Part shown: positions 4,111 through 34,150 of the stretch, piece by piece | Layout of the letters: the number at the start of each line of letters is the position of its first letter | How positions within the stretch are numbered: the first letter of the stretch is position 1 | Source: Piptocephalis cylindrospora | Lineage: Eukaryota | DNA length: 34,220 nucleotides | Direction: 5' to 3' | Assembly (NCBI GenBank): GCA_003614145.1 | Contig: KZ987740.1 | Location: forward strand, 1 to 34,220 | Program-made: the position numbers and the translations under genes | Notes under the pieces: model-generated | Databases searched by the model: none | The model's input: only the letters and a program-made list of their open reading frames with translations | What the model was told of the DNA's origin: nothing

Positions 4111-7100
4111 TTAATTCTTCGCCTTTAAAGGCACAATGACTTCTCCTTCCTCCACGGCCGTCATGGAAGGCTGTGTGGGGATGGACAAGGTAGAATCCTC
4201 CGGCTTTACCCGTCCCTCCTCCCTGCCTGAACTGGTCATACCAGATAGGTAGGACCTCCAGCCACCCTCGGTTTCGATCTTTTCAAGACGAGCAGACAGG
4301 GTTCCGAGGAACCGGGGGACCCAGGGCTCGATTTGGCACCTTCCCTTTTCTTGAATCACCTGAGTATCCGACGGCTGGAAAGTCCTTCGCGTACTATAGG
4401 ATGGGGGATTGAGCGCGATGAGAGACACCAAAAGATTCAAAGACCTCCCAAGCCACTCTCGCATTAACTTACTACTTGAGAACATAATCAGGTAAGAGGC
4501 AGATGGCTAAGGCAAGGGCAAGAGTAAAGTAGTAGGGGCCTGATTGATTCAGGGATCCGTACACATCATGCTCTACGAGGCCAATGACCTCGAGCATATA
4601 CATGATTAGGAGGTAGAGGATAACCGTAGCCCCAAAGGCCAAGTAGGATGGCCAGGTCCAATGGTGGTGCAGAAGGATGGATTTCCCCATCACCACTAGC
4701 CACACCATTGTTCCTACCCAAAGTCCCTGGGAAAGATCTCCAAGGGACATTCCATGTTCATACATCACCCCATCCATCTCGGCCAGGACAAAGATCCCGA
4801 AAATGACTGATTTAAGTGCAGGGATATGAAGTGAGATCAAGGTAATGAGGGGACGAGAAAATAAAGAAAATATACGCTTACCCGCTGAATGGTACATAGA
4901 GGCCAGGCCCCATCCAGCCTCAACCCACCAATTCCAGTAGAGACCATCCTTGACCTCTCGGTAGAGCCGGGGATTCGCTGCAATTCTTTCCTCATCCACA
5001 TCTTTATCCAGACAGGCCATGGCCACGGGTGGGGCCGAGGTGAAAACGACGTTCCATAGGGTGAGGAATTGATCGATGTAGAGCTCCTGGGCGCACCATG
5101 CACTCTCGAATCCGAACCAGAACTGGACGGCAATAAAGACAATGGATTTGTAGAAGGAGAAGAGGAGGAAGGATGTCATTCGGAGGTAGGAATATCGACC
5201 ATGCACACTGAGGAGTCGACGAAGGGCTCGGAATTCGACAAAAGAGTAGTCACTGGCCCGGACGGCCTGAGCCCCTTCCATCCCCTCGATTCCTACGCCT
5301 ACATGAGCCTCTTGAATCATGCTCACGTCGTTAGCTCCGTCTCCGATGGAGAGAGTGACTTTTCCCAGGCGTTTCTTTACCATTCGGACCACCAGAGCCT
5401 TCTGCAAGGGCGTGACACGACAACAGATAACCGACCTACATCGTGTCCCAACCCACAAAAACTTCTCGGTAATCTCTGGCATGAGCAAGACGTAGATGAG
5501 AGATTCCCCATTGACCACCAACGCCGTCTCTTCCACAGACCCATCGGCCTCTTCCTCGCGCATCTCCTCTATGAATTCATCCAGGGCCACAGAACAATCT
5601 GGGGCCGATTTGGCGTTGAGGGTCATGAGCCGCATATGACGAGAAATGAGAGAGGAGGATTTGCCAATTTTAATGGCGGTTTCCTGCTTGTCTCCGGTCA
5701 AAAGCCAGACGCGAATATCCATCTCGAGAAGGTAGGAGATGGTTTCGGGTACATCCTCCTGCAACTTATCCTCAATGGCCGAGGCCCCCAGGAGGGTGAG
5801 GTTCTTCTCGATAAGCTCGGCCGCCTTGGCCATCCGGTCCTCTCGGCGGCGCAGGGCCCGCTCAGCCTTTTCATAATGCCGGGAAAATTTCGCCCATTCC
5901 CGCTCAGAGAGCCGGCGATACGCCATGACTAGAGTTCGTAAGCCTCCTTCTGAGAGACGAGTTAGGTCCCGTTCCAAGGTTGCGCTTTCTCCTCCAGGGC
6001 CCAGGGGATCCTCAGAAAGACGGGGAAGCACGACATTATCTGCGCCCTTACAGTATAGGAAGATGCCTCGTTCATTTCGAACCACCACGGACATCCTCTT
6101 TCGATCGGAGGAAAACTCAAAGACCTTGAGCAGCTCCCATATCTCCTCCCGCTCCTCCATACGAATCCTCAATTGATCCTTACTTCGACTCACCAGCCAT
6201 ATACCACTAGATCGAAGGCCATTGAGCAGGGCCGTCTCATCGGGAGAGGGGCTTTCATATGTAGGTTCTGGAAGAGAGGGCATATGATCCTTGAGCGTCT
6301 TTTTTTCATCAGCCATCTCTTGATCCTTACTTCTTTCCCCCTTCTCCTCCTCTTCCTCCCCATCCTCGTAGACTGGAAGGGTACCGTGGCAAAGGGCGAC
6401 ACACCGACAAAATTCTCGAAGTAGTTCTCCCGGATCCAAGGCCTTGTCTTCTCCCTCCTCCTCACCCTCAGCCTTGCTCATCTCCACCTCTCGAGCATGG
6501 ATTAGGGCCTTGCCCAGACCCCCAGGGTCCCCGGCCTCATCGTACTCCACACCTTGGACCCACCATCGACTCAGGGTCATGATGTTTTGAGTTAGAGTGC
6601 CAGTCTTATCACTGAATATGTACTCGACGGATCCAAGGTCCTCATTGAGGTTGGAATTGTGAACACGCATCCTCTTGCCACCTCGGCTAGTCATACCCTC
6701 ATCCCAGACCATGAAGGCAGCCTGGAGAAGACGGATGATCTCACAGCTTACAAAAACGGAAATGGGGATGAGGAAGGTGTAGAGGACAAAAAAGGTCATG
6801 AGGACGCCGACCACGTCCCTAGCGGACTTGCTGGCGGCTTCTCCTAGATACCAGGCACTCTGTGCTCCATCATGCGCCTGGGTAGGCTGTGAGAAGGGAA
6901 AGAGAAGATGGATGTAAACATAGTGAATGCTACTCTTGTTCCCGTACAAAAAAAGCATACCGAATTGATGTAGGCCAAGCACATGCTCACAATAAGCAGA
7001 ATGGCATTGAGGACGAAAATGTAGATAATCATCCGATTCAACTTTCTCTCTAGGGTAGAGAACTTGAGACCTGTTTGTTTCAGGTTTCTAAATAGGGATT

Positions 7101-10879: not shown

Positions 10880-12070
10880 ATGCACTTGACGACTCTTTTA
10901 ACAGCCGGACTTTTCCTGGCTAACACGGCTACTTCCTCCTTCCACTATAAAAACCTCCATTATGTAGAGAAGAAAGATTTGAAGACCTTTAAGGAGGGAA
11001 GGTACTACAGTACCTTCACCATCCCTCTTTTACGTTCATCCACTCTATCTAAGCCTCAAGGGGCCCTGGATAGAGGTGATGCGTCGGAAAACACTTTGCT
11101 TCCATTTATCAAGAATGGCCTCTCTTCGTTTGTCCAGTCATCCAATTATCTCTTGGATCAGGTCTATCATTGCTCCACAGTCCATGTCCCTGGCCAAATG
11201 GCCGAGTGCTACCGACGCATCCTACGAGAATCCCTCCACAACGATTCTGTCAAGTCTACTAATTTCCAGGCCCCATTCCAACATTATATTAACTCTCACG
11301 ACCCATCCACCCCCCTTGGACATAGAAAGCTCTACGGCTCAAGCGACTCTTTTTTCCCTAGGCCCGTACAGGGTGGGCGCAAGGGGATTATCAGACATCC
11401 GTCCTACACCACGGGGCACTCATTACCCTCCTCGCCCGGTGTCAATTCGTTAAACCTTGAGCAACTCAAGAAAAAAGATGCCCTGTTCAAGGCCTATACC
11501 CTCTTGATTTCCCACGTCCAAATTGCCGCCCGCGAGATGGCCGACTTTGAGATCAAGCTCTGTGTGAAAAACATTCCCAAGATAATCGCCATAAAATATC
11601 GGTCTATCAAAGAATGTCCGAGGCCAGTCGATTCAATGATCGACGTCATTAACTCCACCACCAGTTTCACCAACAAGCTTTTCCTGGCCATTATGGAGGT
11701 CTTAGAGGAAACTATCCAAGAAGTCTCCTCTCGTCCGCATAGCCACCCCGATCCCAAACATAATCAGAATATCCTAACAACCTACAAGGATTATACCGCT
11801 TGCGTAGAGGAACTTATCCGTGACTGGCGCGAACATGCTCTGGACGGACTGGAAAAATCCTTGACTCGTACTCGTTCCGACACATTAGCAATCAGCAAGG
11901 ATGAATCGGAAGGCATAATCTCAGGGTCACGTCTCGGCCCGGGCGGAAAGAATGCGGCTCAGAGCAAGGAAGAGGCTACCGCATCTGACCGACGCATCCG
12001 GTTCAGCCCTAAGAACTCCTACCAAAATGCCCCAACTTTCCCGGATTCCACTGTCGGCAAGAACCATTAG
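10880..12070 (+). CDS. Secreted orphan protein, ~396 aa (candidate effector)
   Basis: Intronless ORF from the ATG at 10880. It has a signal-peptide-like N-terminus (MHLTTLLTAGLFLANTATSS), and a homologous decayed copy lies immediately downstream. Confidence 0.8.
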   Translation: MHLTTLLTAGLFLANTATSSFHYKNLHYVEKKDLKTFKEGRYYSTFTIPLLRSSTLSKPQGALDRGDASENTLLPFIKNGLSSFVQSSNYLLDQVYHCSTVHVPGQMAECYRRILRESLHNDSVKSTNFQAPFQHYINSHDPSTPLGHRKLYGSSDSFFPRPVQGGRKGIIRHPSYTTGHSLPSSPGVNSLNLEQLKKKDALFKAYTLLISHVQIAAREMADFEIKLCVKNIPKIIAIKYRSIKECPRPVDSMIDVINSTTSFTNKLFLAIMEVLEETIQEVSSRPHSHPDPKHNQNILTTYKDYTACVEELIRDWREHALDGLEKSLTRTRSDTLAISKDESEGIISGSRLGPGGKNAAQSKEEATASDRRIRFSPKNSYQNAPTFPDSTVGKNH

Positions 12071-13769: not shown

Positions 13770-15762
13770 CTAATCATGTATATGTTGCTTTTTCCTCGTT
13801 TGTTTCTCCTTCTTACGCCTTTCAGCATCTGCAACTGCAGCCTCCTTTGCCTTTTGGCCGGCCTTTTCCGCATACGCCTTGATTTCCTCTTGCTTCTCCA
13901 TAATCCACTTCATACACAGAGGACCCAAATTGTCCCGCTCAGTATCCTGGATCAAGGGGCCTCTGGCCAATTGCCAGGGGATGACGTAATTTTCCAGAAT
14001 ATCCCGGATCCAAAATCCAAGAGGGATACCCAAGGCTTTGGCCATGGCCTTCCCATCAATGGCATATTTGAGTTCGTAGGTATGGCTGAGATCCTGCTCC
14101 TCAATTTCCTTGAGGAGGTCGAGATAAGGCTCGAGGGATATCTCGGAGGAGCCTTGGGCCATCCTACCTGCAAGGTGCAGGGGAAGTGCTAGTCTCCAAG
14201 CAGGGCCCACGTGTGGATGCCTCCCCATTTCCCGAATGGCCAGGCCCAATTTGACACGATCATGTCCTGTGGTCTGTATGAGCTCTTCAACATGAGTTTG
14301 AGCTAGAAAGAGACCCGTGATGCAATCAGCCTGAGCATTTGACAGCTGCGTAAAGGGAATGAAGGGATGAGTATGGCCAAGATGAGCAGGACAGAGAGTA
14401 ATGCAGCAATGGCTTAATTACCTTTAAGCTTTCTTTGATAACAACAGAAGCGGCAGAAATTTCCTTTTTCCCGCGGGACACGTCTTGACCACGAAGGTGC
14501 CATAAAGCAGCGGCCAAATAAATGGTCTCCTCCCATGATCCTGCCCCTTCGGCATCTCCTGATCCCACCATACCCAAAAGTACTTTTGCATCCTCTGGGG
14601 AACCTTGGATGATCTTGTACAAGGCTGTGGCAGTATCCAGGGACACCTTTGGGTCAATGATGGGGACCCCTGCAGCCTCAAAGACAATAGGAAATAGCCC
14701 AGCACGATGGAGAAGTTTTAATGCCTCAGTCGGGCCTGGTCCGCGTAGCATCTTCGTGACCTCAACGCCAATGCGTTCCCGACTGATCTTGCGCGCAAGG
14801 GCCTCCTGAACCTGGGGAAGACACATGGCCTCGTAGGTCGCTGGATCCAGGGCAAAGTGAAAGCGGCAGGTGAACCGGATACACCGAAGAATCCTCAGGG
14901 GATCATCCATGAATGTTTCGATGGGGGGCAGCGGCGTCCTCACCCGATGATCCCGCAAGTCCTTCAGACCCGTCCCCACAAAATCCTCTACTTGACGCGA
15001 GTGAATATTGTAGAAAAGGGCATTGATAGTGATGTCCCGTCGATACGCATCCTGCTCTGGGGTTCCAAATGCCTTACGAAGGGGAGATGCAAAGGAGAAG
15101 GAGTGAGTTAGGGATCATTGTATACTCATTAGTGATCCTTCCCTAATGACTCGACTTACCACGGTGGTAGGGATACGGCTATCCTCGCCGTATGTCTCAT
15201 TTCTTAGATGAACAAAATCAATAGGCAGACCAGCAACCCAAGTGGTGGCGGTTTCAAGATGCTTACTACGCTCTGGATTCACCGAGATCTTCCCGACGGA
15301 CCGAGTCTCCTTTCCCTGTGCCTCCAACCACTGTACCACTGCCTCGGCCAGTTCAGCTCCGGTCATGGAGGAGGCAGCGATATCCAAATCATGACATGCC
15401 AGGCCTAGTAACTTATCCCGAACCCAACCTCCAGCGATGCGGATGACCAAGGGTGGGTTCATCCGGTCGGATTTTTGGGTCATGGACAGGGTATGAACTA
15501 CCTGTCGTAGTACCTCACATACTTCCTCCTCCTGAGGGGTAAGGTTAAGCTGAGGACCCTGGGGGCTCGACATAACGGTGCGACAAAAAGATTTTGTGCA
15601 AGGTGGAGGGGAAAGAGGGGTGGGAGAAGGGCTTCGTTTTTGTCGAGGCTGGGTCATGGACCACTGAACTAGGGCGCGTCTCGAGAAGGGCCCAGGAGCA
15701 GACGAAAAGGGGCAAACTGAGAATGGAATGGGAACGCGAAGGGGGAGAAGGCGCAGGAGCAT
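13770..15762 (-). CDS. CCA1: CCA tRNA nucleotidyltransferase
   Basis: complement(join(13770..14345,14422..15072,15160..15762)). Motifs: RIAGGWVRDKLLG..DLDIA, NPERSKHLETAT, DFVHLRNETY, FGTPEQDAYRRDITINALFYN, TFMDDPLRILRCIRF, ISRERIGVE. Confidence 0.95.
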
Positions 15763-16019
15763 CCAAGAGCATGGAAGACACTGGTGGCTGTTGTTAAGGA
15801 AGTAAACAACCCCTTTATTTTGGCTATAAGGGTTTCTACAAGGGACACCACACCTCTGTTTGGATTTGCTGGTGGCATTGCACAAGCCTATCTCCCATAC
15901 TAAGGATGCATACCATCTTATCCCACAATTCCTTCTTAAGAAACCTCGAGCATTATACTAACTACCGAGAATGCGCTCATCACCGCCCCACAAGCCCCCT
16001 TTTCTCCCTATTATCTGTG

Positions 16020-17460
16020 GTGCTATGATCGGCGGATCAAGCCCACACTGGACTCTAAATCCCCACCATCCTCCTCGGGAGAGGAGGGCGGAGGGGAAAG
16101 GCCCTAAACCCAGGGAAATCTGGAGAAGGCCGTAGCTGTCTGGCGGAGCTGAGTAGAGGGCGAGTGAGTAGAGTGCCAGCCAGGTGTGGGCAAGGCAGGT
16201 GGGGGAAGCATGTTGTTGAGGACGAGAGAGGATACTATGGAGGGGGAGGAGATGAGTGAGGCTGGCTTGGTTGTTGTGTCCGCGCGCACGCTCTGCCATG
16301 AAGGAAAATGGGATGGAGACATGAGGCCTATTTTCATGCCCCTGGGGCATGTATCGGATAGTGCGTATGCGAGACTGGCTTGGTAAAGGTGTGCGGTTAT
16401 GGGATGAATGGCGAAGCGATTGTGGGTTGATCAACTAGTGCTATTGCGATAGTGGTTCCTCGGTGTGTGGCGTGTACTGTTGTGTCCAGAAAGTCAGCTT
16501 GCTTGGCAGAAAGAGCATTTTGTCGCTGCTTCGCTTCACCAAAGCTATTCTTGTCCCTTGTTCTTCCATCTCTTGTCTCTTTTATGCTTGCGCCGTATGA
16601 CGCACACGCTGGATATGGAGTGGTGGTGTGGCGAGCAGGAATCCCATCGGGTCCATATGCGTCTCTCGTAAACCGCGTATACGGTCGACTTGGGGAAGAG
16701 GTCTTCTTTTCCCTCCGACTGACTCGATGGCCCTGCTTTCTCTACTCCTCCGTTCCTGTACAGTGTGCTGTGTATTGTGCACGCATTTGAGGAGAAGAGA
16801 GGGAGGGACAAGGGTGAGAGGAGTGGTGAGGCTAAGGTGGATAAGATAGGATACTGTTTCGCCACACTAGCTGATTTTCTGCACAGCAGCTGCATGTCTG
16901 GAGGGTGGCTTCACTCTGGCCTCGCCCTCCCATCGACACATGTCTATGTAGTCCTGATTCCCCCTATTCGCTTCTTTTTCACCCCTTCCCACCCTTCTTT
17001 GTCCAGCTTTCGCTGGTACCACGCCCTAGTTGTGCATGCGCTGTGTACGATACACCCCTTGAGGCTGGACTCGTCTACATCCTTCCTTTATGGTGTGCAG
17101 GTCGCTATAACCAATCCCCACACTTATTGCCCGCCCTGTCTTCTTTGTGCTCTAGCTCTATGCCCCTCTTTCAATTCATGTTTCCCTCAGTCTCCGAGTT
17201 CTTTTGGAGACAGCCGCGTCTTGCTCTCTTGGCGCGAAAGCCTCGCTTCCCCTTAAATCACTTTGCCTCGTAGCCCTGCCCTCCCTCCTTTTCCTAGGGG
17301 TAAGGGCTCTGTCCAGTGTGTATGCTTACTGTATCTGATGCTGAAGCGCCAACTATATGAATATGCGATGTTCCATAGTACGTCGATGGTCTGGGGACTT
17401 TCACGAGCCTCCTGATTCTTCAACCCGTCTGGCGCCTCCAAAAACATGCACATTTCCTTT
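16020..17460 (+). ncRNA. Large structured non-coding RNA, candidate telomerase RNA (TR/TER); boundaries approximate
   Basis: No credible ORF. Many helices need G-U pairs on the + strand. CCCTAAACCC (16102-16111) is preceded by a GGGA-tetraloop hairpin (16061-16096), and an enclosing helix pairs 16035-16047 with 16421-16432. Crossing helices 16168-16175/16289-16296 and 16280-16287/16389-16396 form a pseudoknot topology. Confidence 0.55.
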
Positions 17461-17806
17461 TTTTCCTGTATCTAATAGAAAATGCCATTGCAATAGGCCT
17501 TAATGATAAAACAATTGTATGCTGTCTTGGAGATAAGTGTTTATCTGGCCAAGGGTTCATCCTTAAATGTTCAACTGTCGAATACAAATGCCATTCCATA
17601 GTCTAGCTTTAGATTTATCCAATGACGACGTCAAGTAGCCTTTCTGTATAAGTCTAATTTTTGATGGCAGAGCAATAAGATGGTGTTGTTATGACCAAGG
17701 ACCAGAGAAAGAGGACTAAGAGGGGAAAAGGTGATATATACCGACACGTGCCCTAGACGTGGCCATGCTTCCGTAATGTCAATGAGAGCGATGGGCCAGG
17801 AAGCAC

Positions 17807-19186
17807 TTACACCGTCATTTCCCGAGGCTCGTCCGTCGATCGTTGGATGGGAGGAGGGAATTGGGGCTCAGGGAAAGGGGTGCGAGGAGGATAGGGTCTC
17901 GTGGGTGTCCCGGGCCCTGACCCTGAAGGGGTCCCGGTCATCCGGGGAATAGGAGGAGGAGGAGGAGGGGGAGGGTAAGGACCAGATCTATGGCTGCCTA
18001 CAGGAGGATGACCTGGAGGAGAGGTGGGAGTAGAAGGAGCATAGGATGGCCTATTTGGGGCCGGGGAAGGCCTGGTCGCCCCGGAATGATGGTTAGGGTA
18101 AGGGGAGGACATGGATGGACCAGTTATAGGTGGACGGGGCGTAGGAGGTGGAACATATTGCTGATGATGAGGATGATTGTATCCTGATTGGCCTGAGGCT
18201 TCGGAACCATTCCTTCTCGGCCCCAACTGTAGGGGCGGGGGTGGAGGAGGATGGTATACCGAAGTAGATCCTACTTGGCCACCCATTGATCCCCCACTAC
18301 CCCCCGAGCCCATTCTCGAATGTTGAACCCTAGGGGGAGTGGGGGTATAGCTCGAGCCCATGGAACCTCCATGAGAGGATACTACACGCATTGGCGGAGG
18401 AGGGGGAGGAAGGGGAGTGGAATACCCTCCCGGGGGGGCTGCCCCGGCTTGACGGCCAGATTGTGCCTTTAAGTAGGGTAACATGTCGAATTTCTCCAAG
18501 GAAATGGGTGCGCATAGAACAAGACCAAAAATACCCCAAAGCACCACACACATATTAGGATGAGCCAGGGGGAAGAGGACGGGCATGGGCCAGAAGAGGG
18601 TGAGTGCGGTGAGGAGATAGAGTTGCCGCTTTTTCTGGATCAGATATGGCGTATCCTCAACCTCACGTAAAAAAAGAATGGTGGCTCCCAGCTGGAGAAA
18701 GGAGATAATGTTGACAAGGACATGAAGAATCTCAAAGGCGAGGAAGGTATAGGGAGAGTACCCAGTGGCGTACTCAATCCCAAGGATGCACATGCAGCAG
18801 GCCGTGGTAATCCCCAGAGTAGGGGCGTACACCTGAGGAGTCCATTGAAATCGTTGGATGAATTGACGGGCCTCTACATCATCCACCTCTCGCATACTCC
18901 TCATCCAGATGGAATAGAGTTGGGTGGTGGTTACAATGGTCCCAAGGACAACTAGGGCATCTAGGAGTTTGGACACCAATTCGGCCGTCTCCTGCGCTCT
19001 CCACCGTGTCAGTTGATACAGCAGGAGAGATGCTGTGAATCCAGCAAGGTCCATAGCCTGAAGTATACCGAGTTGCAAGTACCACTTGCAATAGGTTCGA
19101 AAATAGCGAGACCATACCACAAGAGCTACAAAAATGTGGACGGCCAGATGCGGGATGGCCGGGATGGACCAATCGAATCGAGACAT
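17807..19186 (-). CDS. Orphan ~7-TM membrane protein with a long proline-rich C-terminal tail (GPCR-like topology)
   Basis: 459-aa intronless ORF. About seven hydrophobic segments lie in residues ~9-230, followed by ~230 aa of Pro/Gly/Ser-rich low-complexity sequence with several P6-P8 runs. Confidence 0.75.
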   Translation of the reverse strand: MSRFDWSIPAIPHLAVHIFVALVVWSRYFRTYCKWYLQLGILQAMDLAGFTASLLLYQLTRWRAQETAELVSKLLDALVVLGTIVTTTQLYSIWMRSMREVDDVEARQFIQRFQWTPQVYAPTLGITTACCMCILGIEYATGYSPYTFLAFEILHVLVNIISFLQLGATILFLREVEDTPYLIQKKRQLYLLTALTLFWPMPVLFPLAHPNMCVVLWGIFGLVLCAPISLEKFDMLPYLKAQSGRQAGAAPPGGYSTPLPPPPPPMRVVSSHGGSMGSSYTPTPPRVQHSRMGSGGSGGSMGGQVGSTSVYHPPPPPPLQLGPRRNGSEASGQSGYNHPHHQQYVPPPTPRPPITGPSMSSPYPNHHSGATRPSPAPNRPSYAPSTPTSPPGHPPVGSHRSGPYPPPPPPPPIPRMTGTPSGSGPGTPTRPYPPRTPFPEPQFPPPIQRSTDEPREMTV

Positions 19187-20246: not shown

Positions 20247-21074
20247 CTACTCATCGTTAGTGTCCTGGGTATCCTCAGAACTTCCATTGGAGGAAGCTTT
20301 AGAGACCTTATCGGCAGGGAGAACACCAGTAGCCTTAGAGTTGGCAGCCTCACCAGCATAAATGGAATCAAGATCAGGAACCGCAGTGGTGGCAGGAGCA
20401 GGATTGGTTGAGCCCCAAGAGACCGAGTACCATTCGGAAGGAAGCTTCTCCGGGTTGTCTCCGGGGAGTAGAACGGCCCTTTGACTATCCTTCTCGGTGG
20501 CGGTGGCACCTTGTAGGATCCGCGCCTCAACTGAGCCATCGGGATGTAAGGCAGTAACGGAGAAGTTGGACGTTTTCATGATCTTTTGCGCACCCTGAAT
20601 ATCAGGAAGGCTGGCCTCTGCCAATCCTGATAGCCACCAAGCCCCAGATGCGTTTTTCATACCGAGACCAATGGTCGTGAAATCAGTAGAAAGGATAGAC
20701 TCGGGAGAGGGCTTGAAGTAGTCCATACCATTGGTATCTTTAAGGTAAAGGGTATTCGATAACGACAACGACTTTACAGTTGTGCTTACGTTTTCAGTGT
20801 CCTTTACCCCCGCGTTCTCTGTTCTTGTATCCACCTGGTAGACACAACCTGGTTCGGGCGCCCCAGTCCGACGAAGGACGGCAATCGGACTGCCTCCGCC
20901 ACCAGCACAGAGGAAGTAGAGAGTAGTTTTGTTCTGCTGATCGACATACTGAGTGACAAAGGAACGGTAATCGCCCCACTCCAAGATCGTTCTCGAAGGA
21001 CCATCCGAGAATGGAAGGGAGAGGCAGGCGGGAAGGGCCAGCAAGAGGGCTGCAAGGGAGATGGAAAGCTGCAT
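20247..21074 (-). CDS. Secreted orphan protein, 275 aa
   Basis: Clear signal peptide (MQLSISLAALLLALPACLS), intronless, beta-rich looking body and an acidic Ser/Thr tail. No recognised domain. Confidence 0.8.
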   Translation of the reverse strand: MQLSISLAALLLALPACLSLPFSDGPSRTILEWGDYRSFVTQYVDQQNKTTLYFLCAGGGGSPIAVLRRTGAPEPGCVYQVDTRTENAGVKDTENVSTTVKSLSLSNTLYLKDTNGMDYFKPSPESILSTDFTTIGLGMKNASGAWWLSGLAEASLPDIQGAQKIMKTSNFSVTALHPDGSVEARILQGATATEKDSQRAVLLPGDNPEKLPSEWYSVSWGSTNPAPATTAVPDLDSIYAGEAANSKATGVLPADKVSKASSNGSSEDTQDTNDE

Positions 21075-23823: not shown

Positions 23824-24800
23824 GGAAGAGAGATGGAGAAGGAACTCGTGAACCTTGCTGCTAGAGTGGTCAATATTTATAAGACATGGGGACGGGGTGT
23901 GTGGGGACGTACATAGACTCTTTTCTTTCTGGACGGATCCCGCTGATTATGTCGCCAATGTACGTGATGATTGGTGGGACAGGCCCCGAACAATGGATGT
24001 TCGCGTACTGCACAACGACGCGTCCCGCGCATAAACAGTGTTAACGTGAGTATTTATTGAGCTAGTAATCAACAAATCAACCGGGCGTCTCTCCCATCTC
24101 CTATGATCCTATAGGATTCTACCAAATGCTCCATTTCCTCAGGTACCTATTTTTTTTAGTTTTTTGAGCCATTTTTAAGGGGTACTTTTCCTGGTTATTG
24201 CTTTTATTTTCTAGGTGCGTACAATGGATAATTTATCTCATCATCTACCGTTCGTATCTCTTCAATTGCTTTATTTTATCGGGTTTATATAAATACTACC
24301 AATTCATACAAAAGATAAATGTCCCATTGACAAGCCCATTCGATATCCATTCATAAAAAAAGGCATCTATTTCTTTAGGGGCGATGGTCTTTTTCTTTAC
24401 CAGGATCACCTGGTATACTACCCAAGACAATGACCAAGTAGAAGGGGCATTCGTCATGCGGTCAGATCCTGTGGTGGTCCTACAGAGTGGGATGGGAAGA
24501 GAGGATCCGCTTCTCCCCCGCTCTGGGAGTAGTAGTCACCCAAGTGTGTGTATTGTTCAGTGATCTCCACCTCACGACTTGCATCTCACTTCGAACCCCT
24601 CCCTTCCTACTCCGCAGTGCCTCGTCCTGAAAGCTTTAGTGCCCGTGAGAGAGGGAGTCAAAGAGGGAGGGAAGAGTGAGGAGGCCAGATATACTCGGTC
24701 AGCTCCTTCTCTCTCTTTCTCCCTCTCTCTCCTCTCCATCTCACCTTGTTTCATTTCCATCTTTCTTTCCTCGGATCTCACCCCGTCCAAGCACTTTGCT

Positions 24801-30496: not shown

Positions 30497-33400
30497 ATGT
30501 ACTACCAACCCAACTTCATACAGGTCATGGTGGAGCGCGTAAGTTCTCCCTTCATCTAGCACATCATCTACCACCTTCCCACACGTCACTTAACCCTCCC
30601 TCCTCCCCTCCTCTTCCCCTAACAGTTATCAAGCCCGGATCCGGACGTGCGATTTATGGCAGCTACAGATCTGACAGGAGCGCTCAAGGACACCAAGGAT
30701 TTTATCCTCCCCCCGACCGCTCATGGTATTGGCAACATTATTGAGCCTTTGGTTCTTCTTTTGGGTGACTCCAATGGGGATGTGCAATCCTTGGCCGTAC
30801 GTTCTTTTGGCCCCCTAGCCTCCAGGAGCAACCAGACGCAGCGAAACGCCATTTTACAAGCTCTGTATGATGTTCTGGCCTCTCCTGTTGCCAATGGTCG
30901 CGACAATGCCATCCTCGCTCTAAAGGGCATTCTCAGTGCTCTTACCAAGGCCATTTCTACCACCTCCACTCATACCACTTCTCTCCCAGCTCCCGCATCC
31001 GCCTTTACCTCGATGGATGCGAAGCAGGTGGTGGAGAAGCTGCTACCGCTGCTTATGACTGAAGTGGATAAGGCTGGCCAAGGCCACCAAGAGGTATGTC
31101 AGATTGGGCGGGGCAAGCGAGTTTTATAATACCACTCATTACTTCTACCCCCTACCTGCATCTATTTCCTGTATTCCTAGGAAATGACTCCAGAAATGCT
31201 TGGAGGAATCCTGGACCTTACCTTTCACCTCCTCTCACCTCCCTTTACTCTTCCTTCCTCCACCCTCCCCATCTCTTCCACCGCCATTTACCCTATACTT
31301 CTCCCTCTCTTGACTCATTCCAGGCAATTGATTAGGAAAAAAACTGTCCTTGTTATGGGTAAGCTATTTTTGAACTTCTTACCCACATCCCCCGCCTCCA
31401 TCCATAATCTTGATGCGGATGATAATCTTTCCCCATCATGTCACATCTTGTTACATTGCATCTCATAACTCATTCACATCGAATATTAAATCTCTATAGG
31501 CGCCACCTCCTCTCTTCTTCCTTCCAAGGAATTCCTCCATCTTGTTGGTGTTACCCTGGAAAACATTGGTCAAGGAAAAGAAATCCCCACTAAGCCTGAA
31601 GATACTCGTACATGGGTTCAGCTCTCTGGGAACATGCTGTAAGTCGTATAGGAATGCGTTACGTAGACGAAAAGCTAATCATTTTCCCAATACTCAATAT
31701 GGCATGGGGGTGTAGGCCCCGGTGGCTACTCCTGATCAAGGCCAAGGCAAGCTCCAGTGGAACCACCGAGGCGCACCATTTCTTAGAGCAGTATACTCAG
31801 GCTCTTGAAGGACTAGTGGGTAGGATGATGCATCAAGGTGAACCTGAGGAGGATACGGAAAGATGGGACCAATTAAACGATCTTTCCGAGGCATGCCTAC
31901 GTGTAAGTAGTAGACTAAGAAATTGAATTTCTTGGCAAACATCATCTCATTACCTCCTACTCTCCAGGCAATGGAAGGATTGGCCCTGTCAGGATTGTAC
32001 GAGCCCCCCATTGATTTACTCAGTACCACTCTTTCTTATGACCCTGGCTACCTTGGGGACGAGGATGATGATGCTATGGGAACTGCGGGAGATGGCGACA
32101 GCTCAATGGACGGCGATGAAGAGGATGGGGAGGAGGATGACTGGGATGCGTAAGTGCTATGTGTCGGGATGTACTTATTTGATGATCATATCTCCCTTCC
32201 TCCCTCAATTCTTTCTACTCACATATCTTCTCTCTCTTCTCTATTTAGTGAATATGATGCTCCAGAAGAAGAAGACGATACCTCTTGGAAAGTTCGTCGT
32301 ATCTCCTTGGATGTCATTCGGGCTCTAGGGATTAAGAAGGCTGCAAGCGTTCCATCCCTTTTGAAGCTTCTACGGTGCCGTGTAGTTCGGGAGCGAGAAG
32401 AGACAGTGAAGGTTGGGGTCCTTGAGGTTATTTCATCCTTGCTTGAAACGTGCACAATCAAAGGGTTCACTGGCGAGGAGGGGATCGATCTGTCTTTACC
32501 CCCATCCTCTTCTATCCCTACTTCGATTACCACTGCAAGTCATGGTGGGGAGATAGGGGGAGGGGGGATTGATTCCACCGGTATGGACGGTCCATGGAAG
32601 AGACGGCGTCTCACTGCAGAAGATAAGGGGATAGAAATGGATGGAGGAGAAGGGGATGAAGGGATTTCCTCTCCTGATTCCCGACCACTTGGGATCCCAC
32701 TCCTCTTGGATCTGTCCAAGCCCCTTTTAGTCCTTCTCAAGGTTACTACTAGATCAGATGACCTTATGCGCGCGTCCCTCCTGGCCCTACGCAGCCTTTG
32801 CCTTTGCCTCTCTAGAGAGCAGGGGGAGAGTGATGAAAAGTTTGCCGTAGAGGGAATGGAGGGTATGAAGAAGACCTGCTCCTCTCTCCCATCCCTTTTC
32901 CTCCCCCTCCTTTCCTCCTCCTCCTCCTCCTCCTCCTCTACTTCAGGATCCATGAGTGAAAAAGGGGATACACATCGTCGTCTAGGCTATCTTACTACCT
33001 TAAAGGCTGTTCTGGACCTTCCTTCCTCCTTCTTGCCCTCCTCCTCCATTCCTACTGACCTTGTGAATGCGGTTTGCCATGCCACTAAAGATACATTTGA
33101 CTGGGTGTCTGTCGAGGCCTTTCGTATTCTCTGTCGAGTGTTAGATCGATTTAACGAAGACTCAGCAGGCAAAGGTGAAAGGGACGTGGAAAGGGAGCGC
33201 ATGGCTGAAGTAGCCTTGGATGGGCTGGAGGGCGGGGGTGGAAGGGAACAAGAGAGGCTACGCTGGTCTCTCCGCCTCCTTGGATCCCTCTCTAACGATC
33301 TTTCTTCCAGTCCGATACTGAGGACGCAAGTCATCCAAGGAATTGTCCAGATTGTGGAAGGATCTAAAGGAGAAGATGGAGTCGCCCTAGAAGGTATGCA

Positions 33401-34150
33401 AGCCCTTGACCGTGCTCTTTCCCCCCTGGATCCTTCCAGCACAACTGGGGCTGAAGAGACCGATATGAGAATGAGGGCTGCCCATGCCATTCTTGGCAGG
33501 ATTCAACGAGGACCTAGGGCTGTAAGGATTGGTGGCATGCAGGTGCTCCTTCATTCCTCTTCCACTTTCCTTCCCACCTTGCTAAGGGGGAGGCAGGCCA
33601 ATGAGGTGGACGCTTGCTTGGTTCGGGCGATGGATCAGGGCAAGATCTCGGCCAAATCCACCCGTGGTGGGGAATGGATGGATGTGGAGGAATCCATTCT
33701 GATCATCCGTATGTCCAAGCGGCTTGCTGATTTGGAGGATCCCACAGCCTCTGGGGGGCAAGACCTTACCGAGAATCAGAGAAGACTCCTTACCTCCTGC
33801 CGATCTCTGGAGGGACCAGGGGTCCTATCTGAGCTGGGTGAGCTGACAGGTCGACTTGCGGCTCATGGCAAGGGTCCATCTATCCTTCGGATCCTCTGGG
33901 ATGATTTGGACTCCATGGATGAGTCCACTGAAGTTCTTGGAGCTTCTAGACTGGTATGTTTTTTATATATGGATAAACTCATTCTAGGGGGGTCTTTGTG
34001 TTTCGGATTTACCTGAATCATGTACCATTATCCTTTTCTGCTATTTAGGGATGCCAAGGAGTGGCTCTGTGTCTGGCCCATGCCCTTGTCCACGATCAAG
34101 GAAACGGGGGATGGAAATTTGTGCAAGAGAAGCTTCTTCCCTGCATTCAG
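30497..34150 (+). CDS. CAND1: Cullin-associated NEDD8-dissociated protein 1 (CAND1/TIP120), divergent, continues beyond the window
   Basis: Exons 30497..30538, 30626..31093, 31181..31358, 31500..31638, 31716..31902, 31968..32149, 32249..33953 and 34049..34150, all GT-AG and phase-consistent. Motifs: DPDVRFMAATDL, LLGDSNGDVQSLAVR, LSYDPGY, DDTSWKVRR, EREETVK. Confidence 0.9.

Follow-up and report, generated by a model that had tools for sequence, protein, structure and literature searches.

The window analysed here is a stretch of 34,220 nucleotides of an intron-containing fungal contig, KZ987740.1 of Piptocephalis cylindrospora. Its Rpb3-type protein showed 86% identity to that of Piptocephalis tieghemiana and 53% to that of the next relative, Syncephalis, as expected of a Piptocephalis-like fungus in the Zoopagomycota. 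The gap that separates the gene for a CCA-adding enzyme (CCA1) from a convergent gene for a 459-amino-acid protein holds a real and previously unrecognised gene for a giant structured RNA (Table 1). When the first 240 residues of the 459-amino-acid protein were used as a query, one relative only was found, in P. tieghemiana (83%), and the protein had no Pfam match. Its N-terminal half is hydrophobic and its tail is proline-rich.

Table 1. Coordinates of the giant RNA gene, its predicted parts and its two neighbours in the window.
Feature	Position	Strand	Remarks
CCA-adding enzyme family gene, first exon	15115..15576	-	Flanking, outside the RNA; divergent; first and second exons match Pfam PolyA_pol and PolyA_pol_RNAbd
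Whole non-coding RNA gene, ~1,440 nt	16018..17455	+	Ends predicted (fold and ACA rule); RNA-library contigs
Giant 5' hairpin (quasi-rod)	16018..17351	+	75% paired, longest helix 13 bp; base helix 16018-24/17345-51
Inner closing helix, 10-bp Watson-Crick	16044..16053 / 17311..17320	+	P1/core-enclosing-like; pair probability 0.99-1.0
Side hairpin with GGGA tetraloop	16060..16097	+	Candidate template boundary element; z -3.9
Candidate template CCCUAAACCC	16102..16111	+	Would specify TTTAGGG; predicted paired except AAA
Long near-unbranched arm	16135..17274	+	Three short side hairpins on 3' strand: 16900-30, 17003-16, 17190-211
Three-way junction at the rod tip	16644..16730	+	Without P6.1-type loop
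36-nt strand facing the template	17275..17310	+	Pairs with template in predicted fold; alternatively only a small non-canonical pseudoknot
H box (ANANNA = AUAUGA)	17355..17360	+	Hinge, 3 nt past rod closure
3' hairpin	17365..17449	+	7-bp lower stem, 8x8 pocket (17373-80 / 17435-42), upper stem
ACA box	17450..17452	+	Directly after hairpin, 15 nt below pocket top; predicted mature end 17455
T7 run	17458..17464	+	Just past predicted 3' end; may act in termination or trimming
459-aa protein gene	17807..19186	-	Flanking, outside the RNA; convergent

Transcript cover and coding potential of the RNA gene

A reading of the sequence alone had proposed a structured non-coding RNA on the + strand adjoining CCA1, and the strand-specific rod predicted for this region agrees with that proposal. 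The boundaries drawn at the time, 416 bases at 16020..16435, were too narrow: the unit extends over approximately 16018-17455, and the RNA is 3.5 times longer.

RNA cover was taken from four metatranscriptome runs (of nine listed; two samples, one study), which were compared with 15000-17800. These data consist of contigs, which cannot give strand, ends or level. The contigs ran without joints from 16023 or 16030 to 17362-17511, about 16023-17451 overall, and a single unspliced contig of 1,481 nt corresponded to 16030-17511. None of the four runs covered 15000-15939, which includes CCA1 exons; this would fit a separate transcript better than carry-over of DNA, but was not counted as evidence because the runs had been found with the RNA stretch and contigs cannot rank genes. 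The contigs of the two samples both stopped at 17451, inside the ACA box (17450-52), an agreement that stays below the level of a hint as contigs of a single study cannot map an RNA end. Three strain differences agreed with the predicted fold, two lying at unpaired positions and one changing a G-C to a G-U pair, which is weak at n = 3. Runs X6 and X7 had adapter-bearing loose ends and left the giant RNA uncovered, and in X1 and X8 nothing aligned. X6 and X7 also contained a contig that jumped back 185 bases at the start of CCA1 (15413-15597), probably a library artefact.

For the internal + strand open reading frame (ORF) of 120 amino acids, no protein relative was found; its frame would be shifted in the RNA-library strain, where one nucleotide is deleted at 17144. 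The three internal ORFs were absent from the protein collection, which is uninformative because the CCA1 exon used as a control was absent too. In the RNA region no Pol III A box was found, and the B box had one weak match only. Rfam searches with the whole window and three sub-regions gave nothing at the gathering score; the check for another family such as RNase P or MRP, suggested together with the original proposal, accordingly produced no match. A homologue search in metagenome contigs, made via the neighbouring protein of P. tieghemiana, gave 109 pattern matches, none of which was confirmed. Of the 22 loci returned for a 17-nt template pattern, none had similarity beyond the pattern itself.

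Predicted giant 5' hairpin and 3' H/ACA module

The + strand of 16040-17325 folded at -603 kcal/mol, the - strand at -460 kcal/mol. Shuffled rod sequences averaged about -470 kcal/mol, with z = -22 for 12 global shuffles and z = -16 and -13 for shuffles within 100- and 50-nt blocks (14 each); none of the 12 global and 28 block shuffles fell below -487 kcal/mol. Thirteen control tiles, folded on both strands, ranged from -328 to -517 kcal/mol, the lowest of them overlapping the giant RNA, and nesting depth reached 436 in the rod versus at most 246 in the tiles. The rod contains 80 G-U pairs and just 4 single A-C mismatches, a bias indicative of selection on RNA from the + strand and not of a decayed DNA palindrome. 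When blocks of the rod were compared with their partners, 11 of 17 had z at or below -2.5, values that are inflated because the partners were taken from the fold itself.

The block at 16209-16245 was the only one to pair no better than chance (z = +1.1); it holds a 12-bp match to the strands of the 3' pocket. Located at 16228-41 of the RNA itself, this match was no better than chance, the window having seven matches of at least 11 bp. A terminal helix, 16020-27/17445-51, was rejected with a probability of 0.03-0.04. The rod helix 16487-16499/16869-16881 (13 bp, one of the two longest) resembles, with the strand order reversed, what we take to be the P3 duplex of human telomerase RNA, and was treated as a chance likeness.

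At the 3' end the elements follow in the order rod, H box, hairpin, ACA, UUU and T7 run. According to excerpts of PMC2664660, H/ACA RNAs are defined by a hairpin-hinge-hairpin-tail layout and a pocket-to-box spacing of 14-15 nt, and the ACA lies three nucleotides from the 3' end. The predicted fold has this layout with an ANANNA box in its hinge, and the pocket of the 3' hairpin has the spacing (15 nt); the 5' hairpin has no such pocket. A test for the module, written after the candidate had been seen, was passed by none of 300 shuffles and by two of 6202 tiles from both strands of the window, one of which was the present site. The other tile (5952-6060, +) is antisense to a P4-ATPase exon and was taken as background. 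The 3' hairpin by itself had z = -1.0, and keeping both boxes open cost 1.7 kcal/mol. Its tip loop contains CGAG (17404-07), which is presumably CAB-box-like. A search for targets of the pocket, confined to the window, gave matches at chance level. The giant RNA probably belongs to the box H/ACA class, and this class-level claim is firmer than that of a telomerase function.

Candidate template and possible telomerase function

The motif strings quoted in the sequence-only reading were all present where it had placed them. The string CCCTAAACCC occurred once on the + strand of the window. The decamer taken as a telomerase template amounts to 1.43 copies of the complement of TTTAGGG, a telomere repeat documented in Phanerochaete and some Aspergillus species. 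A TTTAGGG-type match of at least 10 nt was found in 1 of 200 block shuffles, and when TTAGGG templates of at least 9 nt were also allowed, 3 of 200 block shuffles of the RNA had one. With a broad set of 19 repeat units, a match is not rare: some template was present in 409 of 2000 shuffles (20%), and in 87 of 2000 within the first 200 nt.

The boundary hairpin proposed upstream of the candidate template was upheld as a predicted structure: its predicted stability of -27.5 kcal/mol was reached by none of 500 shuffles, and it was retained in the full-length fold. It lies 5' of the template, as is asked of a boundary hairpin, and may act as one. The decamer starts 4 nt past this hairpin. This is a P1.1-type boundary layout and was counted in favour of telomerase; in excerpts of PMC8480181, a P1.1-type boundary element is called conserved in animal, fungal, plant and ciliate telomerase RNAs (TRs). 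Decamer and side hairpin together make a fair telomerase lead.

From the established parts, namely the motifs, the strand-specific rod and the unspliced RNA-library cover, we infer the following mode of action. An unspliced non-coding gene would give a + strand RNA whose fold starts with the giant 5' hairpin, continues through the H box to the 3' hairpin and ends in an ACA tail. Through the H and ACA boxes this RNA would bind Cbf5-Nop10-Nhp2-Gar1, and these proteins would set its 3' end near 17455, in the manner of animal telomerase RNA. TERT would take its place within the 10-bp closing helix and melt the base of the rod where pairing is weakest. The 3' CCC of CCCUAAACCC would align on telomeric GGG, and TTTAGGG would be copied until hairpin 16060-97 halts TERT. 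The 1.1-kb arm may be an accessory scaffold comparable to the arm of Neurospora telomerase RNA (TER) that separates template from pseudoknot and is dispensable: in N. crassa, nt 463-1288, an 825-nt arm after the template, can be deleted (excerpts of PMC3592445).

Several results were counted against telomerase. The template is predicted to be paired, and opening it would cost 11.5 kcal/mol in a protein-free fold prediction. In favour of telomerase, the template block is a weak block of the rod: 22 of 300 shuffles paired equally well with the rod partner, while 11 of the 17 blocks had z at or below -2.5. Also counted against telomerase were the 20% of shuffles with some template under the broad repeat family, and the exact modification-guide spacing of the pocket, which a snoRNA explains directly.

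A single-sequence search found no canonical pseudoknot with U-A.U triple potential by the closing helix; pseudoknot stems of only 4-5 bp are possible beside it. The search for a U-rich loop and an A-rich strand returned four rows, all of one vertebrate-like motif at 16513-36, which was set aside since both strands already belong to well-supported helices of the rod. Nor was a CR4/5 with P6.1 (4 bp and a NUNGN loop) found, the three NUNGN hairpins all lying inside the rod. A P6.1 candidate at the 3' end had a 4-nt loop, cost 4.5 kcal/mol and overlapped the H/ACA hairpin. A CR4/5 model at 17358-17403 was rejected, as it lay 4.5-9.4 kcal/mol above the free fold and overlapped the same hairpin. 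With what we take to be the Sm-site and 5' splice-site patterns, no Dikarya-type 3' end was found: there was no RAU4-6GR, the only AU4-6G being at 16517 inside the rod, and no 5' splice-site match past 17316. Because two defining features were looked for and not found, we do not file the giant RNA as a member of the telomerase RNA family, although it may work alike. Echinoderm and protostome TRs are likewise without P6.1 in the excerpts of PMC8480181.

Compared with animal telomerase RNA as described in the same excerpts (PMC8480181), the giant RNA has in common a P1.1-type hairpin before the template inside the closing helix, and a 3' H box, hairpin and ACA with a CAB-like tetramer in the tip loop. 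Animal TERs are 239-609 nt long against about 1,440 nt here. Their core lies upstream of the H/ACA 5' hairpin, whereas here the template core is nested within it, and the giant RNA has no identified pseudoknot or CR4/5. With the TERs of Neurospora crassa and other Dikarya (excerpts of PMC3592445, PMC9564094 and PMC12506658) it shares the size range and the order of closing helix, boundary hairpin, template and long arm; the 900-2425 nt given for fungal TRs in excerpts of PMC8480181 include its length. Unlike the Dikarya TERs, it shows neither a PK1/PK2 pseudoknot nor, beyond the core, a P6.1 of 4 bp with a NUNGN loop, and its end is H/ACA-like with no canonical Sm site or 5' splice site there, the characterised fungal TERs in the passages compared having snRNA-like ends. 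A template core nested in an H/ACA 5' hairpin matches no TR architecture in the passages compared, which speaks against the telomerase reading.

Of the telomerase identity originally proposed, the lead from template and hairpin is alive; the core drawn with it is unsupported, and the 3' end is H/ACA-like, not Dikarya-type. Taking these results together, the giant RNA may be an H/ACA-type telomerase RNA of this fungus, to which we give a probability of about 0.45. The weighing is a judgement and was not computed; a guide-type snoRNA received a smaller share, an snR30-like RNA a small one, and the readings that remain divided the rest. A telomerase RNA and a giant snoRNA are about equally likely.

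Still more tentatively, this would be the first telomerase RNA of the Zoopagomycota, one that matures through an animal-like H/ACA end, carries its template core at the foot of a 1.3-kb hairpin and does without a canonical pseudoknot. Neither a Zoopagomycota telomerase RNA nor a Piptocephalis telomere repeat was found in the literature searched, whose scope left out most subscription papers, and the TeloBase supplement (one file) contained no Zoopagomycota names. In earlier work, H/ACA ends have been assigned to animals and snRNA-like ends to fungi (excerpts, PMC8480181 among the sources). If the telomerase reading is true, H/ACA biogenesis of telomerase RNA extends outside animals; it may therefore be ancestral to animals and fungi, the Sm/spliceosomal route being a later invention of the Dikarya. 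Telomerase RNA of the H/ACA type in a fungus that diverged early would change this history and provide a starting sequence with which to search other early lineages.

Other readings of the giant RNA

A giant snoRNA, taken overall, is a possible identity that falls short of an even chance. In its general form, which is rather unlikely by itself, a giant nucleolar box H/ACA snoRNA would guide pseudouridylation or dock pre-rRNA with its 3' pocket, the 1.3-kb 5' hairpin would be an expansion and the decamer would be due to chance. Yeast has large H/ACA pseudouridylation guides such as snR86. The hairpin-hinge-hairpin-tail layout is exact from the 5' end onward, and the top of the pocket lies 15 nt from ACA as in canonical guides, in agreement with the 14-15-nt guide rule. 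Pseudoknot and P6.1 are unnecessary for such an RNA, and the decamer is predicted to be paired in register with the rod. There is also a precedent for an extended 5' hairpin in snR30 (excerpts of PMC12095548). Against this, a TTTAGGG-type decamer (1 of 200 shuffles) right behind the most stable side hairpin must be a coincidence, there was no Rfam snoRNA match, and canonical guides differ from the giant RNA, which has a 1.33-kb 5' hairpin without a guide pocket. If the gene does encode a snoRNA, a 1.44-kb H/ACA RNA of more than twice the size of yeast snR30 would still be an unusual, uncatalogued gene.

A divergent orthologue of snR30/U17, docking 18S ES6 via m1 and m2 in pre-rRNA cleavage, is improbable. 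AAAACAU at 17441-47 is one base off what we take to be the m2 motif of snR30. The spacing of m2 to ACA is invariantly 7 nt, and a shortening by 2 nt nearly abolishes function (excerpts of PMC2664660); here only 2 nt separate the m2-like bases from ACA. GUUCC at 17370-74 is complementary to the rm1 motif GGAAU given in the same excerpts; these m1-like bases lie partly in the lower stem. Like yeast snR30/U17 (excerpts of PMC2664660 and PMC12095548), the giant RNA is an H/ACA RNA in its own right, whose 5' hairpin is greatly extended and which has a 3' pocket and m1-like bases. In contrast to snR30, the giant RNA has its 3' hairpin following the H box with no internal hairpin in between, and it is 2.4 times as long as the 609-nt yeast RNA. 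No SNORA73 or snR30 match was obtained from Rfam.

It is very unlikely that the locus is a decayed DNA inverted repeat, a hairpin precursor of small RNAs or another structured long non-coding RNA with H/ACA boxes that arose by chance. Such a reading would suit a long self-complementary transcript with no family match. The strong strand asymmetry and the excess of G-U pairs speak against a neutral DNA repeat, no helix exceeds 13 bp, and background tiles seldom contain an H/ACA module. At the gathering score, Rfam gave no ribozyme or other motif.

That the gene encodes RNase MRP or RNase P RNA, its P10-P12 arm enormously enlarged, is largely refuted. GGAAAGGCCCU (16095-105) and AGGGCUC (17303-09) can form a P4-like pairing (16100-05/17303-08) beside the closing helix, with a G at the position where the bulged U of P4 is presumably expected. 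A GAAA loop is locally possible, GARA being a listed P8 variant, and the S-domain of human MRP RNA is one long stem (excerpts of PMC13184271 and PMC1796607). The P8-like hairpin, for its part, had a probability of 0.00 in the full fold. In the same excerpts (PMC13184271, PMC1796607), the CR-IV motif AnAGUnA lies 0-3 nt before the 3' strand of P2. No such motif was found ahead of a P2 strand here: 17275-95 contains one purine only, followed by the run at 17296. Neither P2 nor the CR-V linker would fit and linker nucleotides are missing, the RNA continues for 135 nt beyond the closing helix into the H/ACA module, and Rfam gave no MRP or RNase P match. The supplements of the MRP paper (eight files) contained no Zoopagomycota names.

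The compact core of 416 nt that had been drawn first, a Dikarya-type telomerase core to which rod and H/ACA features would be secondary, is highly improbable. The 12-bp complementarity of its enclosing helix (16035-47/16421-32) appeared in just 1 of 120 shuffles, and the helix might form transiently during transcription. In the fold of the full RNA this helix had a probability of 0.00 and did not close the RNA. The pseudoknot proposed within it failed on both counts: crossing helices of at least 8 bp were present in 120 of 120 shuffles, and both of its helices likewise had a probability of 0.00. All three helices are unsupported because they are outcompeted by the long rod; their strands sit in rod blocks most of which have z of -3 to -5. 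The 421-nt stretch folded alone had z = -0.5, and 31 of 100 shuffles were equally stable. An SRP RNA was rejected on inspection, as the rod tip is without what we take to be the helix-8 motif.

Elsewhere in the window, a perfect tandem repeat near the contig start (185-399; unit of 52 bp, 4.1 copies) is not telomeric. A hairpin with a purine-rich and a pyrimidine-rich strand at 24633-24747 gave many sub-threshold matches to Rfam microRNA families, probably owing to low complexity. The ORFs at 10880-12070 (396 aa), 20247-21074 (275 aa) and 32169-34016 (615 aa) had no Pfam match; the first two begin with N-terminal stretches that resemble signal peptides.
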